DNA from: Escherichia phage NJ01
Sequence record: NC_018835.1
Reading direction: 5' to 3' (one strand)
Length of the DNA stretch: 64,000 nucleotides
Shown: positions 23,391-56,632 of the stretch, in pieces
Position numbering within the stretch: the first letter of the stretch is position 1
How the letters are laid out: the number at the start of each line of letters is the position of its first letter
Translations under genes and position numbers: made by a program
Notes under the pieces: model-generated
Told to the model about the DNA's origin: nothing
The model's database searches: none
What the model saw: only the letters and a program-made list of their open reading frames with translations

Positions 23391-23794
23391 AGATTTTCTT
23401 GTAAGTGATAGTTCCTTCTTTAACAGCTTTATCATAAGCCGCTTTGAACTTTTTCATCATATCAATTTTGCTCTGTTTTATCTTTTCAAAAACCATCAAA
23501 TTCGTCATACATCCCAATTCTCTTCAGAAGTCTGGATGTTCATCTTCAAAGCATCCTGAGATGCCTCCGTAGAACCAATCTGATTTACTGCCAAGAATAA
23601 CAACTCCTTCATTCATACACCCTCCTAGATTGTGTTTATAAAATTAGTAAGTTTCTCTTCGCTTTCATCAAAAGCTTTTCCAGCTGCTTCCATCTCCCAA
23701 GTTTCGGCATTGTCAATAAAGCTCTGAGCTTCTAATAGATCGTGGATTAAGTCGAAGAGTTTATTTTTATCTGCTTGTGTGATCATGTCAGTTC

Positions 23795-47889: not shown

Positions 47890-49920
47890 TTAACCTCTAT
47901 TCAATGAACATTTAGGAGAATTACAATAAACTTGATTCATAGAACCAAGCGTACAACTTTCAGCATCGCGCCACGGAATCTGCTTAAAACACTCTGAGCA
48001 GTAGCCGAGGGTTGACCACATGGCTTTGGTGAAGTCAGTGCTTCGGTTTCCGTCGAAGCTGACAACAGTTTTGCGGAGAGCTGTTCGTGATTCAGGAAAC
48101 ACACCTGCTTTCTCAGCAGGTTCCTCCTTTTTTGGCTTAGTTGAGATTGCAAAAATACTGTTGCTACGTTTCTCAACATAAGCATCAACAACATCCTCCA
48201 GAGTGATGCCTGTCTGTTTCGCTGAGGAAGGTAATACAGTCATACGACCGATCATATCTTCAGTTACACGTAAAGCAAATTCAGGACGACGGGCGTTTGT
48301 TGTATCTGTTGCTTTAATCCAGACATAACCATCTTTGATCGTAGCATTAGATACCTTCTTCTTTACATCTACAGCGCAGACTTTACAGATATCTTCACCA
48401 CGAAGACGACTAAGTTCTTCATCGAACTCATTCTCCGTTTTAACTTCACCGCAGATTTCACAAACACCAATAGGAGTTTCCTCCTCTTCTTCATCTTTAG
48501 GTTTAGTCAAACCTTCCAGACATTCAGGGTGCCAGTAGCATTGATATGCGAAGACTGCTTTAGGTGCATCCTTCCAATCAATGTGTTTGTCACAACCACC
48601 GCAATCACCATGAGAGTGTGCTTCCCAGAATTTACGAGTGATAGTAACGCCATTCTTGTTGACGAAACTATCATTCATATCAAAAGGGATATCATCATCG
48701 AAGTCAGCAGTAGTAGACTCAGGCTCCTTTTTCTCCAGAGATGGGTCAACAAAACGACCTGCTGTGATTACTAAACGAACCATAGCATTAACTTCGGAGA
48801 TGCAGGATACTGTCCCACGGTAAACGATTTTAGGGTCTTTCAGGGCATCCTGATAAGCCTTAATGTCTACGTTATGAACATCGCCTTCAATATACTCTTG
48901 AGACTTCTCATCGTAGATATAACCAATCATCTTACCACGAGAAGGAACAGCACCAGCTGTTGCATAAGGAACAAACTCATGTGGTGTGATTTCCACAGTC
49001 ATGTCGCGGCGAATGTCAATGTTTCGATCGCTTGCGATTTTGTTTTGACTTACCACTGCGTTTCTTCGACGAACGTCTGCCGCTGTCACTCCCGGCTTCG
49101 TGTCGTAAGGATTGCTTGTACTGCTTTTTGAGGAACTTTGATAATTGCTTTGGCTGTAGTTGTTCGAGTAGTAATTGCCCCAACGATTGATTACCGTAAA
49201 AACCGGAAGCTCGTGGGCGACCTCTTCAACTAGAGTCATACTGTTGTTTGACATATCAAAGATATATTCTGTACCAACTTTACATTCAAAGTGCTCATCA
49301 ATTCGGTTTTTGTGAGACTTAGAACGCTTCAGAATCCACATCAACATGTCTTCTTCAGAAGCACCAAACCAATCTCTGTTACAACGTGCGAGATGGAAAG
49401 GACGCTCTTCATTACGGATGATATGAAGGCGGTTATCAGAAGCATCATGCCAGATTAAGGTGAAAGCACCATCCAGCTTTTGAATAGTCTCTGCTGCACC
49501 AATAGTGTTAATAGAGTGGCAGATGTTCTCACTGTCTACCTCGAAGTTTTTGCTGTCAGGTAACAGATCTTGGTCCATCAAGGTTCCATTATGAACCAGA
49601 GTGATGTTACCATGTTGGAAAGGATGGGCGTTCTTGGCGTTAACTGCACCTTTCGTTGCATGACGGCTGTGACCAACAATCCATGAAGGCGCTACAGTGT
49701 AAGCTGTTTCACCAGTGGTGTGTTTCTTGTACTCATCTTGAAGGATGAATGCGAAAGAAGGAAGTGCCTCTTTATAAGTGAAGACTTCCTTAGTGCTCTT
49801 ACGCTGACCAAAGATACCAGAGGAATGTTGCCCTCGGAATACCCCAGCATAAAAGAGTTGGTTAAATACGTCTAAATCAGTGCTTGACAGATTACCGCCA
49901 GCTAATACGATGCCACAAAT
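47890..49920 (-). CDS. class-II (Ntn) glutamine amidotransferase fused to Cys-rich zinc-ribbon C-terminal region; non-canonical start
   Basis: Frame open 676 codons; N-terminus (I)CGIVLAGG...FRGQHSSGIF...HSRHATKG matches PurF-type GATase; no ATG/GTG/TTG before Cys; track start 49581 is internal. Confidence 0.7.
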   Translation of the reverse strand: MCGIVLAGGNLSSTDLDVFNQLFYAGVFRGQHSSGIFGQRKSTKEVFTYKEALPSFAFILQDEYKKHTTGETAYTVAPSWIVGHSRHATKGAVNAKNAHPFQHGNITLVHNGTLMDQDLLPDSKNFEVDSENICHSINTIGAAETIQKLDGAFTLIWHDASDNRLHIIRNEERPFHLARCNRDWFGASEEDMLMWILKRSKSHKNRIDEHFECKVGTEYIFDMSNNSMTLVEEVAHELPVFTVINRWGNYYSNNYSQSNYQSSSKSSTSNPYDTKPGVTAADVRRRNAVVSQNKIASDRNIDIRRDMTVEITPHEFVPYATAGAVPSRGKMIGYIYDEKSQEYIEGDVHNVDIKAYQDALKDPKIVYRGTVSCISEVNAMVRLVITAGRFVDPSLEKKEPESTTADFDDDIPFDMNDSFVNKNGVTITRKFWEAHSHGDCGGCDKHIDWKDAPKAVFAYQCYWHPECLEGLTKPKDEEEEETPIGVCEICGEVKTENEFDEELSRLRGEDICKVCAVDVKKKVSNATIKDGYVWIKATDTTNARRPEFALRVTEDMIGRMTVLPSSAKQTGITLEDVVDAYVEKRSNSIFAISTKPKKEEPAEKAGVFPESRTALRKTVVSFDGNRSTDFTKAMWSTLGYCSECFKQIPWRDAESCTLGSMNQVYCNSPKCSLNRG

Positions 49921-49999
49921 TTTCTAATCCACCTGAAGGGTAAACCCTTTCATCTAATTAACCTTTAAATTGTGCCCCTTTGTCAGAGGCACCCATTGA

Positions 50000-51103
50000 T
50001 TACAGCGCTTGCTCTAACTGATTTTCCAGATGATCTGGAATGTACCCTGTGATGTTGTTATCACTGTGGCCTGACTCACGTAGCAAGTCAAAAATAGCAC
50101 GGATACGTTGCTCTGGTGCAGATCGTACAGTAGATAGATCAGTTGTACGAAGCATAACCAGAATCTCTTGGTACAAGTTATTAGCGTTCCCTCGAACATA
50201 TCCAAGGAATCCATAGAAGTCTGTGATAAGACGTAGGTCAACAAGAACTTCTCCGTTGGAGTTGGTTCGACGTAAACGAATACGACCAGACTGCTCTACT
50301 TCATGAGAACGACAATACAAAACATCACGGGCCATACAATACCCTGAATGCAAATCCGATTCGTCCAGATTGTAATCCAGAGGAAGGTAAGGAAGCATTG
50401 GGGCAAATCGTACAGTATTTAAATGCTCAATAAACTGATCATTGCTCATCTCTGCGTTATCTAATGCAAGCTTCTTCAACATCAAGAAGCGGTTAACCAG
50501 ATTGAGAAGTTGACCACGTTTCCACTTAGGCTCACTGATACGGAACTCGATCGAACCGTATTGGGCAAGTGGCAGAAGGTTCAGAGATGTATATTTATCC
50601 CATGAACGAACCAGACGGTTGAAGAACTCTTCATCGTCGTAGTTAAATGCGTCAGAGGCATTCATTACCTGTGCTTGTACCACTGCGAAAGCAGGGCAGA
50701 AGTTGCTACGGTAACGATGGTAGCCTGAACACTTGAACAACATCTTTTCATAGAAGGTCCAAGCGAGAATGGTTTTCTTGAGGATATTACTATCAGCATC
50801 CCTCATATCCATATGAACGTGAGTAGAGCAACGCCAAGTCCCCTCGGCGTGCGATTCAGCTACTGCTTCACTCAGGTTGTTGATAGCGTCTAACAACTCC
50901 TGTCCGTTGTAAGGTCGTGAACATACCATTTCACAACCATTACGCAGGGAACCATCCTCTGTACAATCCCACATATCTGCTTCGATATGATCGGAACCTT
51001 CGAGTTCAAGTTCAATACCGACACCGCACTGAAGTGCAATTGAACTATGCGCCTCAGTTAAACGACCTTCTCGATATCCAAAAGTTTGCGCTACAGTTGT
51101 CAT
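50000..51103 (-). CDS. GCS2/YbdK-type carboxylate-amine ligase (amidoligase)
   Basis: 367 aa; N-terminal GVGIELELEG and later THVHMDM resemble YbdK GIELE / HVHVG motifs (from memory). Confidence 0.6.
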   Translation of the reverse strand: MTTVAQTFGYREGRLTEAHSSIALQCGVGIELELEGSDHIEADMWDCTEDGSLRNGCEMVCSRPYNGQELLDAINNLSEAVAESHAEGTWRCSTHVHMDMRDADSNILKKTILAWTFYEKMLFKCSGYHRYRSNFCPAFAVVQAQVMNASDAFNYDDEEFFNRLVRSWDKYTSLNLLPLAQYGSIEFRISEPKWKRGQLLNLVNRFLMLKKLALDNAEMSNDQFIEHLNTVRFAPMLPYLPLDYNLDESDLHSGYCMARDVLYCRSHEVEQSGRIRLRRTNSNGEVLVDLRLITDFYGFLGYVRGNANNLYQEILVMLRTTDLSTVRSAPEQRIRAIFDLLRESGHSDNNITGYIPDHLENQLEQAL

Positions 51104-51717
51104 AACGAATCCACCAACGTAATATTGTAATTGCTAAGGTTTTCAGAAATGTGATGAAAGTGTTCCAGAAGTCGCATCGGTTGCTGACCGTAAGAGTCAC
51201 GAGGCGCTTCCAGATCTACTTGTCCTACCAGTGCACCTTTATAATGCACCTTACCATCAGTAGGGTTGATGTAAATATAACGAGTGACCAATCCTTCGAA
51301 TTCAGGATTGAACAGACTGTAAACCATCTCCCCGGAGATAGCACGACCAACACCCGGAGCATTTCGAATCTTGTTACCCATCAAACCCTTTGCTCTCTGA
51401 CGAACAGGGTTAATATGAGTCCAGCTTACAGTGTTACCGTTATGGAACAGATAACCAACATCAGGTGATTCAAGAATCAAGGTTGGGTCGAACACTGGAA
51501 TATTCATTGTAGTGTTTCGAAGATTCCCTTGCTCGTTCTTGTACCACTGCTCTACAACAAAGTATAGAGCCTGTTCTGCTTCGTGAGAGAAGTCATCACT
51601 GCGGAAGTTACCGCTCTGCTCAACACCAATCACAAAACACGGAAGGTTGATATTACCTGCTCGTTTAGCAATCCATGTACCATTATAGTAATGAGAAAAA
51701 TCAGCTACTAAGCTCAC
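51100..51717 (-). CDS. hypothetical protein of amidoligase operon
   Basis: 205 aa; ATGA overlap with downstream ligase gene. Confidence 0.45.
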   Translation of the reverse strand: MSLVADFSHYYNGTWIAKRAGNINLPCFVIGVEQSGNFRSDDFSHEAEQALYFVVEQWYKNEQGNLRNTTMNIPVFDPTLILESPDVGYLFHNGNTVSWTHINPVRQRAKGLMGNKIRNAPGVGRAISGEMVYSLFNPEFEGLVTRYIYINPTDGKVHYKGALVGQVDLEAPRDSYGQQPMRLLEHFHHISENLSNYNITLVDSL

Positions 51718-51726
51718 GATAACCTC

Positions 51727-52533
51727 TTATGCTACCTGAAGGAGTTTGATCTGCTGGTCCGCTTCTTTAACGTTGTTGCCGTTAATGATTTCATGAAGCT
51801 TCTCAATCGGAAGGCGAGAGTGTAATGCCATCAGAGTGGACATATCACACTGCTGAACAACTTTGTCAACCTGATCATAAACAAACTTACGATTTTCACG
51901 ATCACTAATCCAGAAGTTAGACAGTGAACGATATTCAATACCATAATCTTTATAACGGATTGCAGATGCTTTACCGTAGAGTTCTTTACGGCGAGTATCT
52001 TTATCCATAATAACTGCTGGAAGGGACAGGAAGTAGTCACACAGCACACCCAACATCATCTGAGTTTGCAGGGTGATATCCAAAGCACCAACTACGCCAA
52101 GATGTACGTGACCACCGGCAGTACGAAGTCCCTTATTCTGAGAAGTCGGGGATGGATTCTTCTGACCAGTGAAAGCGTTGAAATCAGGAGTACATCCGAA
52201 GATGAACGCTGATTCATTGAAAGTCTTCATCTCTTCTTCAGTGAAGATGTGAGAGCTAACACCCGGAGATGTTTCCATGTCCAGTTTGTTCAGGACATTG
52301 TTGGTGAGATCGATACCACGTTGCATGTTATCGTTAAACGCGTCAAAGCCGCTCTGTGGGTCGATATCAAACTCAGCCAGTACGTTGTCCTCTTGAAGAC
52401 GAACATCCTTAGCCAGAGTGATCTTATCGTCCTTAGAACAACCTAACAGACCAGCTACAGAGGTGATGATGCCATTGCTGGTACGAACGAACATCTCGGG
52501 ATCACTCCCAATAAGGAATTTGCGCTTAGTCAT
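51727..52533 (-). CDS. divergent GCS2-like carboxylate-amine ligase (second amidoligase)
   Basis: 268 aa; N-terminal IGSDPEMF and GGHVHLGV motifs parallel the Glu-rich strand and HVH motif of GCS2-type ligases. Confidence 0.45.
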   Translation of the reverse strand: MTKRKFLIGSDPEMFVRTSNGIITSVAGLLGCSKDDKITLAKDVRLQEDNVLAEFDIDPQSGFDAFNDNMQRGIDLTNNVLNKLDMETSPGVSSHIFTEEEMKTFNESAFIFGCTPDFNAFTGQKNPSPTSQNKGLRTAGGHVHLGVVGALDITLQTQMMLGVLCDYFLSLPAVIMDKDTRRKELYGKASAIRYKDYGIEYRSLSNFWISDRENRKFVYDQVDKVVQQCDMSTLMALHSRLPIEKLHEIINGNNVKEADQQIKLLQVA

Positions 52534-53497
52534 TGTAATACTCCACTAGTTCAGAAAAGAGAGATGAGATTGTGTTACCAACTTCTTCAGTAGTAAGGCC
52601 AGAGCTTGGGCCAGTACGCTGAATCAGTCGGGCTGTAAAGTTTTGTACTGTAATGTTTTCCAACTTATTGTCTATTGCTTCACGTTTGTGACCATGACAG
52701 TTGGACCAGAGTCTTAACCACTCTGACATTGTTTCATACTCGTCCGGGTCTTGATCTTTAGCACGAGCAAATCTTCGTAAGGCTTCTTGACTATGGTTAC
52801 GAACATAACCATTCTCGTTGTCACCAACACCGAAGGGGTTTTGAACCCATACTTGTTTCGTGTATTCATCAGAGTCTACAACCAAAGGAAGGAATGCTGC
52901 TGCTGACATATCGTTATTAACAACAATAGAGGTGCTCTCGCTACTCCCATTAGCTCTTCCTCGTTGAGACCACCCACCGAAGAAGTCACGACCCAACCCA
53001 GCTAACACTAGAGCGATTCCGATTCGTTTACGCTTCAGCCACTCTTCCCTGTCTTCAATTCCTTCTGCTAGGAAATCCATTCCACGATACTGCCCTTCCA
53101 GAATGCTACGGAAGAGCATAAGTCCTGTGAAGATCTGATCTGCTGGATGCTCACGGAGGTTGACAGCTACACTATTCGCTGAAGTGATTGTAAATACATC
53201 ACGATAGCAAGACATAGAGTTCATAATGTCTGCTGTTTCAACCAAGTTCTTTTCAATTTCAGATGGAACATGACCGTGAAAAGAGTGAGTCCAGTAATTC
53301 AACATCTCCAATTGCAAGTTGATATCACGGTTGAAGCGTCTATAACGCCCCTCTTCAGTGATAACTTCACCATTAATATCATTTACACACTGGCCTTGCA
53401 TATAGTTGTGGATACCGAAGCACCCACGACCTAAGAACTTCTGTTCCCCTAAATCTTGTTGAAGATTCAGAGGTACGATCGTTGTGGAGATTGACAT
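52526..53497 (-). CDS. hypothetical protein of amidoligase operon
   Basis: 323 aa; 8-nt overlap with downstream gene. Confidence 0.45.
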   Translation of the reverse strand: MSISTTIVPLNLQQDLGEQKFLGRGCFGIHNYMQGQCVNDINGEVITEEGRYRRFNRDINLQLEMLNYWTHSFHGHVPSEIEKNLVETADIMNSMSCYRDVFTITSANSVAVNLREHPADQIFTGLMLFRSILEGQYRGMDFLAEGIEDREEWLKRKRIGIALVLAGLGRDFFGGWSQRGRANGSSESTSIVVNNDMSAAAFLPLVVDSDEYTKQVWVQNPFGVGDNENGYVRNHSQEALRRFARAKDQDPDEYETMSEWLRLWSNCHGHKREAIDNKLENITVQNFTARLIQRTGPSSGLTTEEVGNTISSLFSELVEYYND

Positions 53498-53507
53498 AAC
53501 TAACCTT

Positions 53508-54701
53508 TTATTTTCCTAAAAATAATCCGCTCATAATACCATCCCACTCAGAGGATGGAATCACTGAATACACTGAACTTTGGTCCATAGTTCCACTACT
53601 AAATCGCTGAACAATGTTATAAATGTTGAACAGATCTTTAGTCTCAGCACGGATGCCGTAGATTAGACTATTAGCTGTTCTCTCATCTTTAGATACGCGA
53701 CGGGTAAAGTTAATCAGAAGGTTGTCACATTTCAGGATTTCTGATTCATTCTCTACTAAATCAGGGTGCATCACCGGCAAGAACATCGAGTTATTAACTC
53801 GTAATTCTGCTGTTTCATCATTCTCGTAATGAATCCACTTAAAGTCTTCATCACGGAAGTGACCACATCCATCTCTGTATGACTGTTGACGCCAAGGCAC
53901 TTGAAATGCTTCAGCATATTTATCAGCCATACCAACCGTAAACAACGACGCTGGGAAGATACAAGCATCCCAATCATTACCAACAAGAGTAGCTTTCGTT
54001 TCACCCAAGAGGTTAGTGTAAGTGCTAACCATTCGTGAGTAAACGTAAGCCTGAAGAATTGTCCAGCCTTCAACCAACCATTTATGAAGGAAGGTTTCAA
54101 CTTGACTCTCTTCATCATCACAATAGAAGGTTCGATCTAACATTAAATAGAACAGACAACGATCAGCAGGAACATTCTCAGTTGCTACACCCATAAAACC
54201 TTTTTCGTGCCAGCGTAAACAGGAGGGACGATCTTTGTCCACAAATGCTTCCATAGCTTCCAGTACAGCACGAGGTGAGGTTTGATACTCAGGGTTTTTA
54301 TCATTCCAGTGCTCAATGTTATTTTTAAGCTCGCCTTCGTGATCAATTGCACCCCAACATAAATCTGCGGATACAGGTTTTTCATCACGCCATCGTCTAA
54401 AACCTAACATCTTCATGTGAGTTCCGGAGTTCCAGATATGCTTGATTTTACACATATCCATCTCTCGGCTTAACAGGAACTCTTCCCCATCAGCACTACG
54501 AACGTTAGCTTCTTCATGCCACACTCGAACGTGCATATTCCATCCATGAGTTGCCTCATACATGTTAGGGTCGAAGTATTCATCTTCGTAATCATCTTCA
54601 TCAACGCCACCATTATAGTTGCGAAGCTGAAGGAACCCATAACAAGGAGGGTGGACCGTTAAAACATTACCTTCAGTATCTTCTAATGTTACTGGAAACA
54701 T
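53508..54701 (-). CDS. hypothetical protein of amidoligase operon
   Basis: 397 aa; no motif recognised. Confidence 0.45.
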   Translation of the reverse strand: MFPVTLEDTEGNVLTVHPPCYGFLQLRNYNGGVDEDDYEDEYFDPNMYEATHGWNMHVRVWHEEANVRSADGEEFLLSREMDMCKIKHIWNSGTHMKMLGFRRWRDEKPVSADLCWGAIDHEGELKNNIEHWNDKNPEYQTSPRAVLEAMEAFVDKDRPSCLRWHEKGFMGVATENVPADRCLFYLMLDRTFYCDDEESQVETFLHKWLVEGWTILQAYVYSRMVSTYTNLLGETKATLVGNDWDACIFPASLFTVGMADKYAEAFQVPWRQQSYRDGCGHFRDEDFKWIHYENDETAELRVNNSMFLPVMHPDLVENESEILKCDNLLINFTRRVSKDERTANSLIYGIRAETKDLFNIYNIVQRFSSGTMDQSSVYSVIPSSEWDGIMSGLFLGK

Positions 54702-54712
54702 TATACCAACCT

Positions 54713-55075
54713 CTATTGGTTTTTAATCAACTCAATTGACTTACGGATATAAAGAATATCTCGGAAGTTTCTGTAGTTGTTCATAAATTGGTGCTTCTGG
54801 AAAGTAGCTTCTTCCATAGCTTTCTTTGCATCTGCGTAGTTTTTACGGGCAAGATGTACAACCCGCTCTGGTAACGTATTTGCACGACGGATGATATACT
54901 TGTGAGCTTTCATGTTGCTTTGCTCACGAGCAATCTTACCTTTAGCAACTTTGATACCATTTGCAATCCAAGCAAGTTCTTGCTCAAGATCCTCGTTGGA
55001 CATTCCACCGAGATTTGATGCAACCTTGTTCAGAGTTTCAATATTAACGTTGCCCTTAATGGGACGTGTATTCAT
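54713..55075 (-). CDS. hypothetical protein
   Basis: 120 aa; SD AGGAG; coupled to upstream small membrane gene. Confidence 0.4.
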   Translation of the reverse strand: MNTRPIKGNVNIETLNKVASNLGGMSNEDLEQELAWIANGIKVAKGKIAREQSNMKAHKYIIRRANTLPERVVHLARKNYADAKKAMEEATFQKHQFMNNYRNFRDILYIRKSIELIKNQ

Positions 55076-55077
55076 AC

Positions 55078-55230
55078 TTACTCCTGTTGTTTACACTCGT
55101 CAATAACCCACTGATAAGTGGATTGCCCAGAAAAGAAACACTGAATAAATCCAGATGTTCTCTGCGTTACCAGTGCTAGTGCACAAATCACTATCGCTGC
55201 TGCTAGCAGTTTTAAATCTAATTTAGACAT
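55078..55230 (-). CDS. small membrane protein
   Basis: 50 aa, below track cutoff; SD GAGAGG; TMD LLAAAIVICALALV; first gene after leader terminator. Confidence 0.4.
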   Translation of the reverse strand: MSKLDLKLLAAAIVICALALVTQRTSGFIQCFFSGQSTYQWVIDECKQQE

Positions 55231-55243
55231 ATTTCCTCTCATT

Positions 55244-55274
55244 GAATTTAAAAAAGGACTCTCCGAAAAGAGTC
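55244..55274 (-). terminator. intrinsic terminator/attenuator (minus strand) in leader of amidoligase operon
   Basis: gactct-tttcgg-agagtc hairpin followed by CTTTTTTAAATT on minus strand, ~15 nt before SD. Confidence 0.55.
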
Positions 55275-55456
55275 AAGCTTTAAATCCAAAAAGATATTAC
55301 CCAATATCTGTGGATAACCTGCTCTTAAAATATCTATCCGACGGATGTTTGAGGAGTATTCCTCGCCCTAGCATCGGCCCCATACGGGAAATATATTAAG
55401 ATTAGGTTAGTTGAGTCAGAATAACTCATATAGCCCTCCGAAGAAGGCTATAGATG

Positions 55457-55924
55457 TTACTCTATCTTAACTGAAGGGCAGTACTTCTCTTTCTTGCTGC
55501 GATACATCACAACAATCCAGTTCGAATCACGACGTTGCTTTTTAAGTCGTTTCTTTTCGGCACGAATTTCGTATGTGCTATCTCGGCGATCTAGGAATTT
55601 ATCCCGCGCCTTAGTTGAAAGCCACGTTGTACCAATTATGAAACCGACTAGGCTTCCAGCAGCACCTAAACCAACCATAGGAGCAGCAAACCAAGTCCAC
55701 CATACAAACGTACCTGCTGTATCATGTCCTAGCAGTGCACCACCAATAAGGCTTAACGCTACATATACCATAGCGGATAGCACTATTAATATAGCAAAGT
55801 TTTGCACTGTTCGCCAGAAGTATTCACAGAAGTTGGTCATGTTGTCCCAATGATAATTGGGTAGGCTTGACATGGCTTTGTTGAATTTGTGCAACCAGCC
55901 GTTCTTGTTAACCTTGATCATCAC
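55457..55924 (-). CDS. membrane protein with several predicted TMDs
   Basis: 155 aa; hydrophobic stretches ILIVLSAMVYVALSLIGGALLG and WFAAPMVGLGAAGSLVGFIIG. Confidence 0.45.
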   Translation of the reverse strand: MMIKVNKNGWLHKFNKAMSSLPNYHWDNMTNFCEYFWRTVQNFAILIVLSAMVYVALSLIGGALLGHDTAGTFVWWTWFAAPMVGLGAAGSLVGFIIGTTWLSTKARDKFLDRRDSTYEIRAEKKRLKKQRRDSNWIVVMYRSKKEKYCPSVKIE

Positions 55925-56154
55925 TCACCTTTCTTGGCACGATCTTTGGCAGTTTTGCCAGTGCGGATACGATGGGAAACGTTAACCAGAGTACCACCAT
56001 CAACTACGGTAACGCTCTTGTTTTTAGCCAGATCAAACACAGTCTTCTCTGTGCCACCCAAGCGAATTTGCTTAGGCTCACTGAAGGTTTGGGTTGATTT
56101 AGATTGGAACTGGAACGGTTGACGGATTGCATCAATTGCGCTTACTTTAGACAT
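55921..56154 (-). CDS. hypothetical protein
   Basis: 77 aa ORF, 4-nt overlap with downstream gene. Confidence 0.35.
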   Translation of the reverse strand: MSKVSAIDAIRQPFQFQSKSTQTFSEPKQIRLGGTEKTVFDLAKNKSVTVVDGGTLVNVSHRIRTGKTAKDRAKKGE

Positions 56155-56386
56155 AGGGGAAATTCCTTAAAAATTATGGCTGCGTAGAGGGAATTCCCTA
56201 CGCAAATTGGGCCGCCCACAGAGAGGCGTCATAGTACTAAAAGGAGGAGAGAAGAGGGCTTATTTAGCTACCTTTTTCTGTCCGTTTACGAACCAGATAA
56301 TTGAACCGTCAGGCTGGCGTTGACCGAAACCTTTCTGGTTGATCATATCGTCATAAGAATATGCTTTTGTTTTCACTTACTTACCC

Positions 56387-56632
56387 TTACATTGGAGTTA
56401 AGATGATCTCTGCTTTGGCAAACTTCTCACCAACTTCGAGAGTATCAGCAACAGGACGAGGTACACCAGTACCCAAACAAACAGCCCTTCGGTACCCACC
56501 AGATACAGTCATCATCAAATAAATGACCTGATTATCATCTTCTTTTAAAGTAAAAATATCAGCGATTGATAAGTCTTTAACAAAGAGTTTCTTTTCTTCT
56601 TTGTGACGAACCTTAATATTAATAATGCTCAT
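56387..56632 (-). CDS. small protein, early-region paralog family (divergent member)
   Basis: 81 aa; motif VKDLSIADIFTL...VIYLMM...AVCLGTGVP. Confidence 0.4.
   Translation of the reverse strand: MSIINIKVRHKEEKKLFVKDLSIADIFTLKEDDNQVIYLMMTVSGGYRRAVCLGTGVPRPVADTLEVGEKFAKAEIILTPM

Follow-up and report, generated by a model that had tools for sequence, protein, structure and literature searches.

How does translation begin on a gene whose product must start with a catalytic cysteine when no canonical start codon adjoins that cysteine? The question is raised by a glutamine amidotransferase gene on the minus strand of a 64,000-nt stretch (the window) of Escherichia phage NJ01 (NC_018835.1), a Kuravirus, that is, an E. 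coli podophage like phiEco32 and SU10. Taken as a whole, the evidence is best explained by a translation start at ATT (49920-49918), set in a frozen cassette of a hairpin and a Shine-Dalgarno (SD) sequence, and we consider this reading likely. Feature coordinates are collected in Table 1.

ATT as the candidate start codon of a phage amidotransferase

Direct re-reading of the minus strand from 49953 downward gave exactly the leader described in the initial annotation: ATG (49953-49951) AAA GGG TTT ACC CTT CAG GTG GAT, TAG (49926-49924) AAA ATT (49920-49918) TGT (49917-49915) GGC ATC GTA. The stop-to-stop frame runs from 49923 to 47890 and comprises 677 codons. With the in-frame TAG in front and the earliest in-frame ATG, GTG or TTG at 49581 (a TTG, codon 114), the gene does lack a canonical start, as had been claimed. 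A scan of all long stop-to-stop frames in the window found this to be the sole plausible gene with such a long start-less N-terminus; the single comparable frame lies on the strand opposite the genes. Because the TAG blocks any extension, the next start deletes the nucleophile, and the SD sequence noted earlier (GGTGGA, 49933-49928) does lie 7 nt before it, ATT appears to be the only route to a protein that carries Cys1. Initiation at the next canonical codon would remove the catalytic Cys and half of the domain.

The requirement for an N-terminal Cys follows from the kind of enzyme encoded. The N-terminal part of the product matches Pfam GATase_6 (55.1 bits against a cut-off of 27, 1e-14) and GATase_7 (27.4 bits against 25, 3.7e-6). 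A search of the PDB with the single sequence gave no match, whereas a profile of 13 homologues matched GlmS at 3.9e-15 and also PurF and AsnB. Cys1 of the family profile aligns, from the first residue, to Cys1 of E. coli GlmS (1xff), PurF and other solved class-II amidotransferases. Across the 13 diverse homologues (alignment A1), C1, G2, R28, G29, N96, H109-N110-G111, D128 and S129 are invariant; by likeness to GlmS, the Arg, the Asn-Gly of the oxyanion hole and the Asp would be glutamine-site residues with the corresponding catalytic roles. The product is thus, by sequence, a class-II (N-terminal nucleophile, Ntn) glutamine amidotransferase and predicted glutaminase, and therefore the N-terminal Cys requirement applies. 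The initial statement that the Ntn domain must begin at this Cys agrees with its invariance among homologues and its alignment to Cys1 of GlmS and PurF.

What stands before Cys1 in other phages? Two scans of IMG/VR with N-terminal-domain profiles, the second centred on Pseudomonas phage O4 (itself ATC), provided 80 loci each out of about 600 homologue loci in total; a further 263 and 180 loci lie outside the counts. The codon before Cys1 was ATG at 60, ATT at 12, ATC at 4 and TTG at 2 loci of the first set, and ATG at 40, ATT at 20, ATC at 8, TTG at 9 and GTG at 1 locus of the second. Removal of duplicates left 131 distinct leaders (32 ATT/ATC, 89 ATG, 9 TTG and 1 GTG), and ATT/ATC account for some 25-35% of the listed phage homologues. 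The codon is ATG in Proteus P59, GAP52, SE131, LAh_9, PJNS034, Bjorn, KIT05, LUZ24 and Laroye. The occurrence of ATG-TGT at exactly this position in homologues, together with ATT or ATC in 32 of 131 distinct leaders, argues for the earlier suggestion that ATT, with its SD, is the start. The E. coli genes infC, which encodes initiation factor 3 (IF3), and pcnB start at AUU. By analogy with them, fMet-tRNA would initiate at the phage AUU with reduced, IF3-sensitive efficiency, and deformylase and methionine aminopeptidase would then expose Cys1. To our knowledge, exposure of Cys1 by Met removal is common to every class-II amidotransferase.

The start and its leader are strongly conserved. Across the 63 nt from 49900 to 49962, 67 GenBank phage records match the window perfectly (100% identity), 28 have a single differing base (a synonymous GGC>GGT in codon 2 where inspected), and two records of Aeromonas phage BUCT695 show 93% identity. 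The gene region overall falls to 60-80% nucleotide identity in 29 records, and the leader appears as a sharply bounded, invariant island. The same leader is found in five IMG/VR and seven metagenome contigs, and ATT is invariant in 95 Kuravirus records and kept in BUCT695. The initial annotation had left room for a sequencing error and proposed a comparison with related phages; TAG and ATT are kept throughout about 95 GenBank genomes, none with stops or frameshifts, and this conservation, extended by the IMG/VR and metagenome contigs, excludes such an error.

A second possibility raised there was amber read-through. Translation from the ATG at 49953 would yield a 12-residue propeptide, MKGFTLQVD-X-KI, removed autocatalytically as in PurF of Bacillus subtilis. 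Apart from the TAG the frame is continuous, propeptides are known in some Ntn amidotransferases, and in one homologue (L057) an ATG stands 12 codons upstream of Cys in an open frame. However, read-through would require UAG suppression in ordinary E. coli hosts, the good SD is spaced for ATT and not for a read-through product, ATG-start homologues have their ATG directly before Cys, and no conserved propeptide sequence is seen. Unlike the B. subtilis PurF type, the window has no open in-frame N-terminal extension to Cys. The idea is unsupported above all because in 25 of the 32 ATT/ATC leaders the frame holds no canonical start from the upstream stop down to ATT/ATC; with the in-frame TAG, this makes it extremely improbable.

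Could the true start instead be internal, at the TTG, or the gene be decaying, so that the N-terminal glutaminase half is not made? Gene callers do pick the TTG at 49581, and the proteomics table for SU10 gives 63.8 kDa. However, this figure is merely the computed mass of the database entry (we compute 63,831 Da for the truncated form and 75,990 Da for the full protein), the 112 codons upstream encode a conserved glutaminase domain, intact and invariant at its catalytic residues, and the roughly 95 genomes free of stops and frameshifts do not look like decay. We regard an internal start or a decaying gene as highly unlikely. Those same codons (49582-49917, minus strand) contain no ATG, GTG or TTG despite several Val and Leu residues. 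Selection against internal starts downstream of a weak one might explain this, or it may be chance; it is not a general rule, because NC-B-type Kuraviruses have Met codons in that region.

The AUU start itself is already annotated and would be of the infC/pcnB kind. It has been in the database since the type phage phiEco32 (2008), where phi32_83 (54493..56523), like gp85 of SU10, is annotated from the same ATT. Most later Kuravirus records lost it. Of the 60 records in a spread sample, just about 9 annotate a coding sequence that covers the leader; the others carry the 563-aa TTG form or something similar (for example, phages Paul and SDYTW1). The record of Escherichia phage YF01 begins the gene at another internal codon. 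The records of BUCT695, O4, VPp1, 275E43-1 and Klyazma also annotate internal starts where the true codon would be ATT or ATC (mis-annotated loci: L001, L002, L007, L014, L178-L180 and L183). The catalytic Cys is missing from these annotations because ATT and ATC are not accepted as starts by gene callers. About 85% of the sampled Kuravirus records, plus those five phages, are affected, and functional or proteomic work built on the truncated entries is compromised. We found no paper linking an ATT start, a phage and an amidotransferase, and no text on the ATT start, leader, hairpin or endonuclease link of phi32_83/gp85, in a literature search whose reach did not extend to the phiEco32 genome paper or to Iyer et al. 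2009.

Leader hairpins and near-cognate starts across the family

The proposed cassette of about 45 nt consists of a cluster of stops in three frames, a 5-bp hairpin, the SD, a 7-nt spacer and then ATT. In the window, the 3' end of the hairpin lies 15 nt before ATT, flush against the SD, and the BUCT695 hairpin differs in its loop alone (TTAA). Is such a hairpin a feature of near-cognate starts in general? Counting contiguous stems with an energy of -3 kcal/mol or lower, hairpins whose 3' end lies 11-17 nt 5' of the start are present in 17 of the 32 ATT/ATC leaders, 1 of the 89 ATG leaders and 0 of the 9 TTG leaders (Fisher 4e-11, a p-value inflated because the leaders are not phylogenetically independent). 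Among the distinct leaders, no enrichment was found in the 18-24, 25-31 and 32-38 nt bins. In a neighbour-joining tree, approximate and with long branches, ATT/ATC alleles fall into at least five clusters, with ATG sisters that lack an adjacent hairpin. The ATT/ATC group also has the stronger SD duplexes (-7.9 vs -6.3 kcal/mol).

The stems themselves are not fixed in sequence. Wholly different stems stand beside near-identical SD-spacers in L082/L070/L057, L081/L153, O4/L142 and VPp1/WD615, and these differences are compensatory changes in predicted helices. Counts of helix pairs (94-100% paired, 0 of 500 shuffles) are illustrative only and circular as evidence of covariation, because the sequences were chosen and registered by the hairpin finder.

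What would the hairpin do? It would act at the RNA level, either on ribosome binding or by insulating the gene from upstream translation. In a reporter series, weak hairpins just 5' of the ribosome-binding site were mildly stimulatory and stable ones mildly inhibitory (PMC3592434). A role as a 5'-terminal stabilizer of the mRNA is disfavoured, since there is no room for a promoter at many ATT/ATC loci, where the end of the upstream open reading frame (ORF) falls within the hairpin or 0-6 nt 5' of it. No sigma-70 promoter or intrinsic terminator is predicted at the leader on the coding strand; the SU10 paper places the region among the early genes and lists no promoter or terminator between CDS85 and CDS86 (PMC4281155). 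An SD-sequestering hairpin, GGUUUAC/GUGGAUU, that appears in the minimum-energy fold was set aside, as it is not kept in BUCT695. An Rfam search of the leader returned no known RNA family (best E-value 0.12, far below gathering scores).

These observations can be read as expression tuning and nothing more. ATT and the hairpin would then be purely adaptive, giving low, IF3-sensitive translation, with a structural element that positions or stabilizes the 30S subunit or the mRNA and has no historical link to an endonuclease. The absolute conservation of the leader across Kuravirus, the stronger SDs of ATT/ATC leaders, the compensatory variation of stems beside near-identical SD-spacers (L082/L070/L057, VPp1/WD615), the stimulation by weak hairpins in the reporters and the precedents of infC and pcnB all suit this account. 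On the other side, the majority of homologues work with ATG. The initial proposal that the arrangement is a regulatory device limiting expression is plausible, and the reason for ATT over ATG would be either low, IF3-dependent tuning or a change of a target site, ATG-TGT-GG, that confers immunity.

The nine-codon upstream open reading frame (uORF) that begins at 49953 allows a different form of control, termination-coupled reinitiation. A ribosome translating the uORF would melt the hairpin, stop at the UAG 3 nt before AUU, be held by the SD and restart, so that enzyme output would depend on uORF translation. The geometry of a stop, one codon and AUU is that of E. coli thrS-infC, UAA GGU AUU, whose output reporter work divides about evenly between reinitiation and de novo initiation (PMC3592434). 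The uORF terminates within a few nt of the restart codon (TAG, 49926-49924, 3 nt before ATT), both its ATG and its TAG are kept in Kuravirus and BUCT695, and L056, L076 and L111 each have a longer upstream ORF that spans hairpin and SD and ends 4 nt short of ATT. However, no other ATT/ATC leader has such a uORF, and its ATG sits in a three-frame stop cluster, 1 nt from the base of a hairpin that would have to be melted. For its own initiation, Kuravirus offers a weak SD (AAAGG) and BUCT695 none. The two bases at which the leaders of Kuravirus and BUCT695 differ, one of them in the hairpin loop and the other in the SD of ATT, each change a uORF codon non-synonymously; in GAP52 the homologous GATGAAAGG is no start but the SD region for a gene that begins with ATG; and stop triplets in the spacer are equally common in ATG leaders, with no significant enrichment in ATT/ATC leaders. 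Reinitiation is therefore an unlikely account, and the uORF most likely arises as a by-product of the stop cluster TAGATGA, which contains its ATG. In endonuclease-bearing relatives, the endonuclease stop codon occupies the position of TAATTAGATGA. A +1 frameshift at GGA-TAG, of the prfB type, that would fuse the upstream ORF to the enzyme was rejected because the frames are inconsistent between lineages and the TAG of the window is in frame.

Direct initiation at ATT behind the hairpin and SD thus remains our preferred reading. It would be one of few well-supported natural AUU or AUC starts, and one that recurs in a single phage protein family with a hairpin of fixed geometry. Alleles with ATG, ATT, ATC and TTG occur naturally in this family, some with the hairpin and some without it, and offer a test of how near-cognate starts work.

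Upstream endonucleases and the origin of the leader

Why should the same arrangement recur? At 6 of the 32 ATT/ATC loci (L066, L080, L082, L111, L120 and L123), an HNH endonuclease ORF with matches to HNH_3, zf-His_Me_endon and a helix-turn-helix (HTH) domain lies immediately upstream, its stop codon either within the hairpin or 0-4 nt 5' of it. No HNH endonuclease lies directly upstream in any of the 99 ATG/TTG/GTG leaders among the 131 distinct ones. The closest GenBank homologues of this endonuclease, intact copies in five cultured phages, are all directly upstream of an amidotransferase gene. The endonuclease and hairpin are followed by CGGAGGATAGTCCT ATT in Vibrio phage 275E43-1, by CTAAGGTGAACCGTT ATT in Vibrio phage VPp1, by CGGAGGATAATACT ATC in Klebsiella phage Klyazma and by TTG in Vibrio phage WD615. 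KIT05, an endonuclease-less relative of VPp1 and WD615 with a near-identical 5' coding sequence, has ATG and an unrelated leader. At a different position, Escherichia phage YF01 has an HNH endonuclease gene immediately downstream of the amidotransferase gene (L178 2515-3021), unlike the upstream slot in the marine phages.

BUCT695 connects the Kuravirus leader to these loci. Its amidotransferase is 52% identical to the Kuravirus protein and groups with that of the ATG-start phage GAP52, yet its leader, TTAGATGAAAGGGTTAACCCTTCAGGCGGATTAGAAAATT, is only two bases off the Kuravirus leader (95% identical) between flanks that are both unrelated or far more diverged. Its SD, AGGCGGA, stands at the same place as the AGGTGGA of Kuravirus. 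Just upstream, a 246-nt spacer holds a 29-codon ORF, MDKVLKKITHQGDCWLWTGCINSDGYPKE up to its stop, that aligns with the N-terminus of every one of these endonucleases (blastp 1e-10 to 1e-5) and whose only non-self GenBank match is the Klyazma endonuclease; the spacer also holds a weak C-terminal HTH remnant. Judged by these matches, the spacer is an internally deleted HNH homing-endonuclease pseudogene. It is unannotated in the record (23393-23640; L007 51-300), where it lies between a gamma-glutamylcysteine-ligase-like gene and the amidotransferase gene.

We consider it an even call whether the Kuravirus leader descends, as this comparison suggests, from the 3' flank of an endonuclease cassette whose endonuclease was later lost. 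The leader would then have been kept as the only ribosome-binding site of the gene. The window would be at most a relic and not a member of the cassette, since no endonuclease ORF lies immediately upstream of its leader.

A broader proposal, which we put forward tentatively, is that hairpin, SD and AUU/AUC form a mobile, selected initiation cassette that travels with HNH homing endonucleases targeting the 5' ends of Ntn-amidotransferase genes. The change from ATG to ATT, ATC or TTG would confer self-immunity by altering one of the few variable bases in the otherwise invariant ATG-TGT-GG, a start so weakened would stay functional through the hairpin and strong SD, and the Kuravirus leader would be a fixed relic. 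Purely adaptive tuning, which we hold to be possible to about the same tentative degree, leaves unexplained why the endonuclease gene occurs only beside non-ATG alleles in the unbiased set, and why a 45-nt leader is common to phages with 52% identical proteins and unrelated flanks.

Several observations weigh against the cassette, its proposed origin and the start itself. Neither hairpin nor endonuclease is present in 12 of the ATT/ATC leaders. Pseudomonas phage UFV-P2 has the endonuclease together with an ATG start. No endonuclease occurs at this site in the window or in 12 other Kuravirus contigs from IMG/VR and metagenomes, and because no Kuravirus contig has one here, the step that derives the leader from a cassette rests on BUCT695 and analogy. 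That the leader is perfectly conserved is compatible with function and with a relic alike. Mass spectrometry of SU10 identified nine peptides of the protein, for which 63.8 kDa is listed as the expected mass (PMC4281155), and these data are silent on residues 1-112, because the truncated 563-aa sequence was used; CGIVLAGGNLSSTDLDVFNQLFYAGVFR is a peptide within those residues of the full protein.

UFV-P2 carries a different hairpin at the same junction, TTGAAAT-AGAAGG-ATTTCAA, with the SD in its loop (L181 1270-1300), a distinct solution. Our literature search returned no description of the family-wide pattern of ATT/ATC, hairpin and endonuclease, and we know of no description of an endonuclease whose presence is tied to a non-AUG start of a neighbouring gene. 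If true, the mobile cassette would be the first case of a selfish endonuclease explaining recurrent non-canonical start codons in a host gene. If the endonuclease link holds, selfish DNA would shape the translation signals of neighbouring genes.

Gene neighbourhood and comparison with known systems

Table 1. Features at the amidotransferase locus, in window coordinates
Feature	Coordinates	Strand	Basis
Full glutamine amidotransferase coding sequence from ATT, 676 codons plus stop (predicted mature protein 675 aa from Cys)	47890..49920	-	Translation
N-terminal class-II (Ntn) glutaminase domain, about 240 aa	49198..49917	-	Pfam GATase_6 and GATase_7; PDB profile matches
TTG, first canonical in-frame start, codon 114	49579..49581	-	Start in most GenBank annotations (563 aa, without Cys1)
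TGT, Cys1, predicted catalytic N-terminal nucleophile	49915..49917	-	Alignment; GlmS/PurF profile alignment
ATT, probable initiation codon	49918..49920	-	Adjoins invariant Cys1; in-frame TAG two codons 5'
7-nt spacer TTAGAAA between SD and ATT	49921-49927	-	Sequence
uORF, ATG to TAG, 9 codons, probably incidental	49924..49953	-	Kuravirus and BUCT695 only
SD AGGTGGA	49928..49934	-	Sequence; predicted anti-SD duplex -5.9 kcal/mol
Leader hairpin AAGGG-TTTA-CCCTT, 5 bp	49936..49949	-	Centroid fold; stem energy -4.6 kcal/mol
TAATTAGATGA, three-frame stop cluster adjoining the hairpin on its 5' side, with the uORF ATG	49950..49960	-	Sequence
Upstream hairpin GUGCCUCU-GACAA-AGGGGCAC, 8 bp, just after the amidoligase stop	49972..49992	-	Predicted fold
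Amidoligase_2 enzyme, upstream neighbour	50000..51103	-	Pfam PF12224 4e-8; annotations of relatives

The amidoligase gene upstream ends with a TAA at 50002-50000, 79 nt before ATT. The hairpin that follows it varies in stem and loop, with compensatory changes, among Kuravirus contigs (for example, GGGCGCTCTTATACAGGGCGC) next to the invariant leader, and it is not a classic terminator because it lacks a U-tract. Between the two hairpins, TTTAAAGGT (49961-49969) was rejected as a phiEco32 gp36 promoter, being a poor match to the consensus tAATGTAtA. An element resembling that consensus, TTTAAATGT(A), lies about 20-35 nt before the start in the ATG-start relatives L005, L006, L008, L021 and L025 and in BUCT695 (L007), often after a terminator-like hairpin. 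The degenerate TTTAAAGGT is its Kuravirus counterpart and possibly a lost or weakened phage-sigma promoter.

Downstream of the glutaminase domain, the C-terminal 430 or so residues (47890-49197, minus strand) have no significant Pfam match. This part holds several CxxC pairs, CGGC...C..HPEC, CEICG...CKVC and CSEC...CNSPKC, which look like zinc ribbons. The neighbourhood from 45129 to 54701 on the minus strand comprises a GGACT cyclotransferase, an ATP-grasp enzyme, two small ORFs (one DUF7195), the amidotransferase, the Amidoligase_2 enzyme, an ORF without assignment and a phiEco32-type COOH-NH2 ligase (type 2). A phage cluster of amidoligase, GATase, ATP-grasp and GGCT genes was reportedly described by Iyer, Aravind and colleagues in 2009 and predicted to modify a peptide or metabolite. 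As this amidoligase/ATP-grasp/gamma-glutamyl-cyclotransferase cluster is uncharacterized, the true N-terminus and the dosage of the enzyme matter for the pathway.

How does the locus compare with known systems? Its nearest counterparts, phi32_83 and gp85, are the same gene in the same neighbourhood with the same ATT start. The class-II amidotransferases GlmS, PurF and AsnB share with it a match from residue 1, the Arg, Asn-Gly and Asp positions and a Cys1 nucleophile exposed by Met removal. They differ in that the C-terminal 430 residues of the phage protein are unrelated to known synthase domains. Cellular class-II amidotransferase genes start with ATG. Free-standing phage HNH genes (HNH_3 genes of the gp7.7/gp2.8 kind in the T7 group, with mobE and seg of T-even phages as functional analogues) resemble the endonuclease-bearing loci in occupying an intergenic slot by a conserved coding sequence, in their patchy spread among close relatives, in their decayed copies and in the hairpin at the gene boundary; unlike such cassettes, the window itself has no endonuclease gene.

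The closest parallels for the start are infC and pcnB. As in these genes, AUU appears to be the sole start, an SD precedes it and the codon is conserved among orthologues. The stop of the preceding frame lies one codon upstream in infC (UAA GGU AUU) and likewise in the window (UAG AAA AUU). The autoregulation of infC by IF3 has no evident counterpart in the window. Unlike infC, the window gene encodes a phage enzyme in which Met must be followed directly by a catalytic Cys. Moreover, unlike in infC and pcnB, a hairpin abuts the SD, and the trait recurs in many unrelated phages within one protein family.

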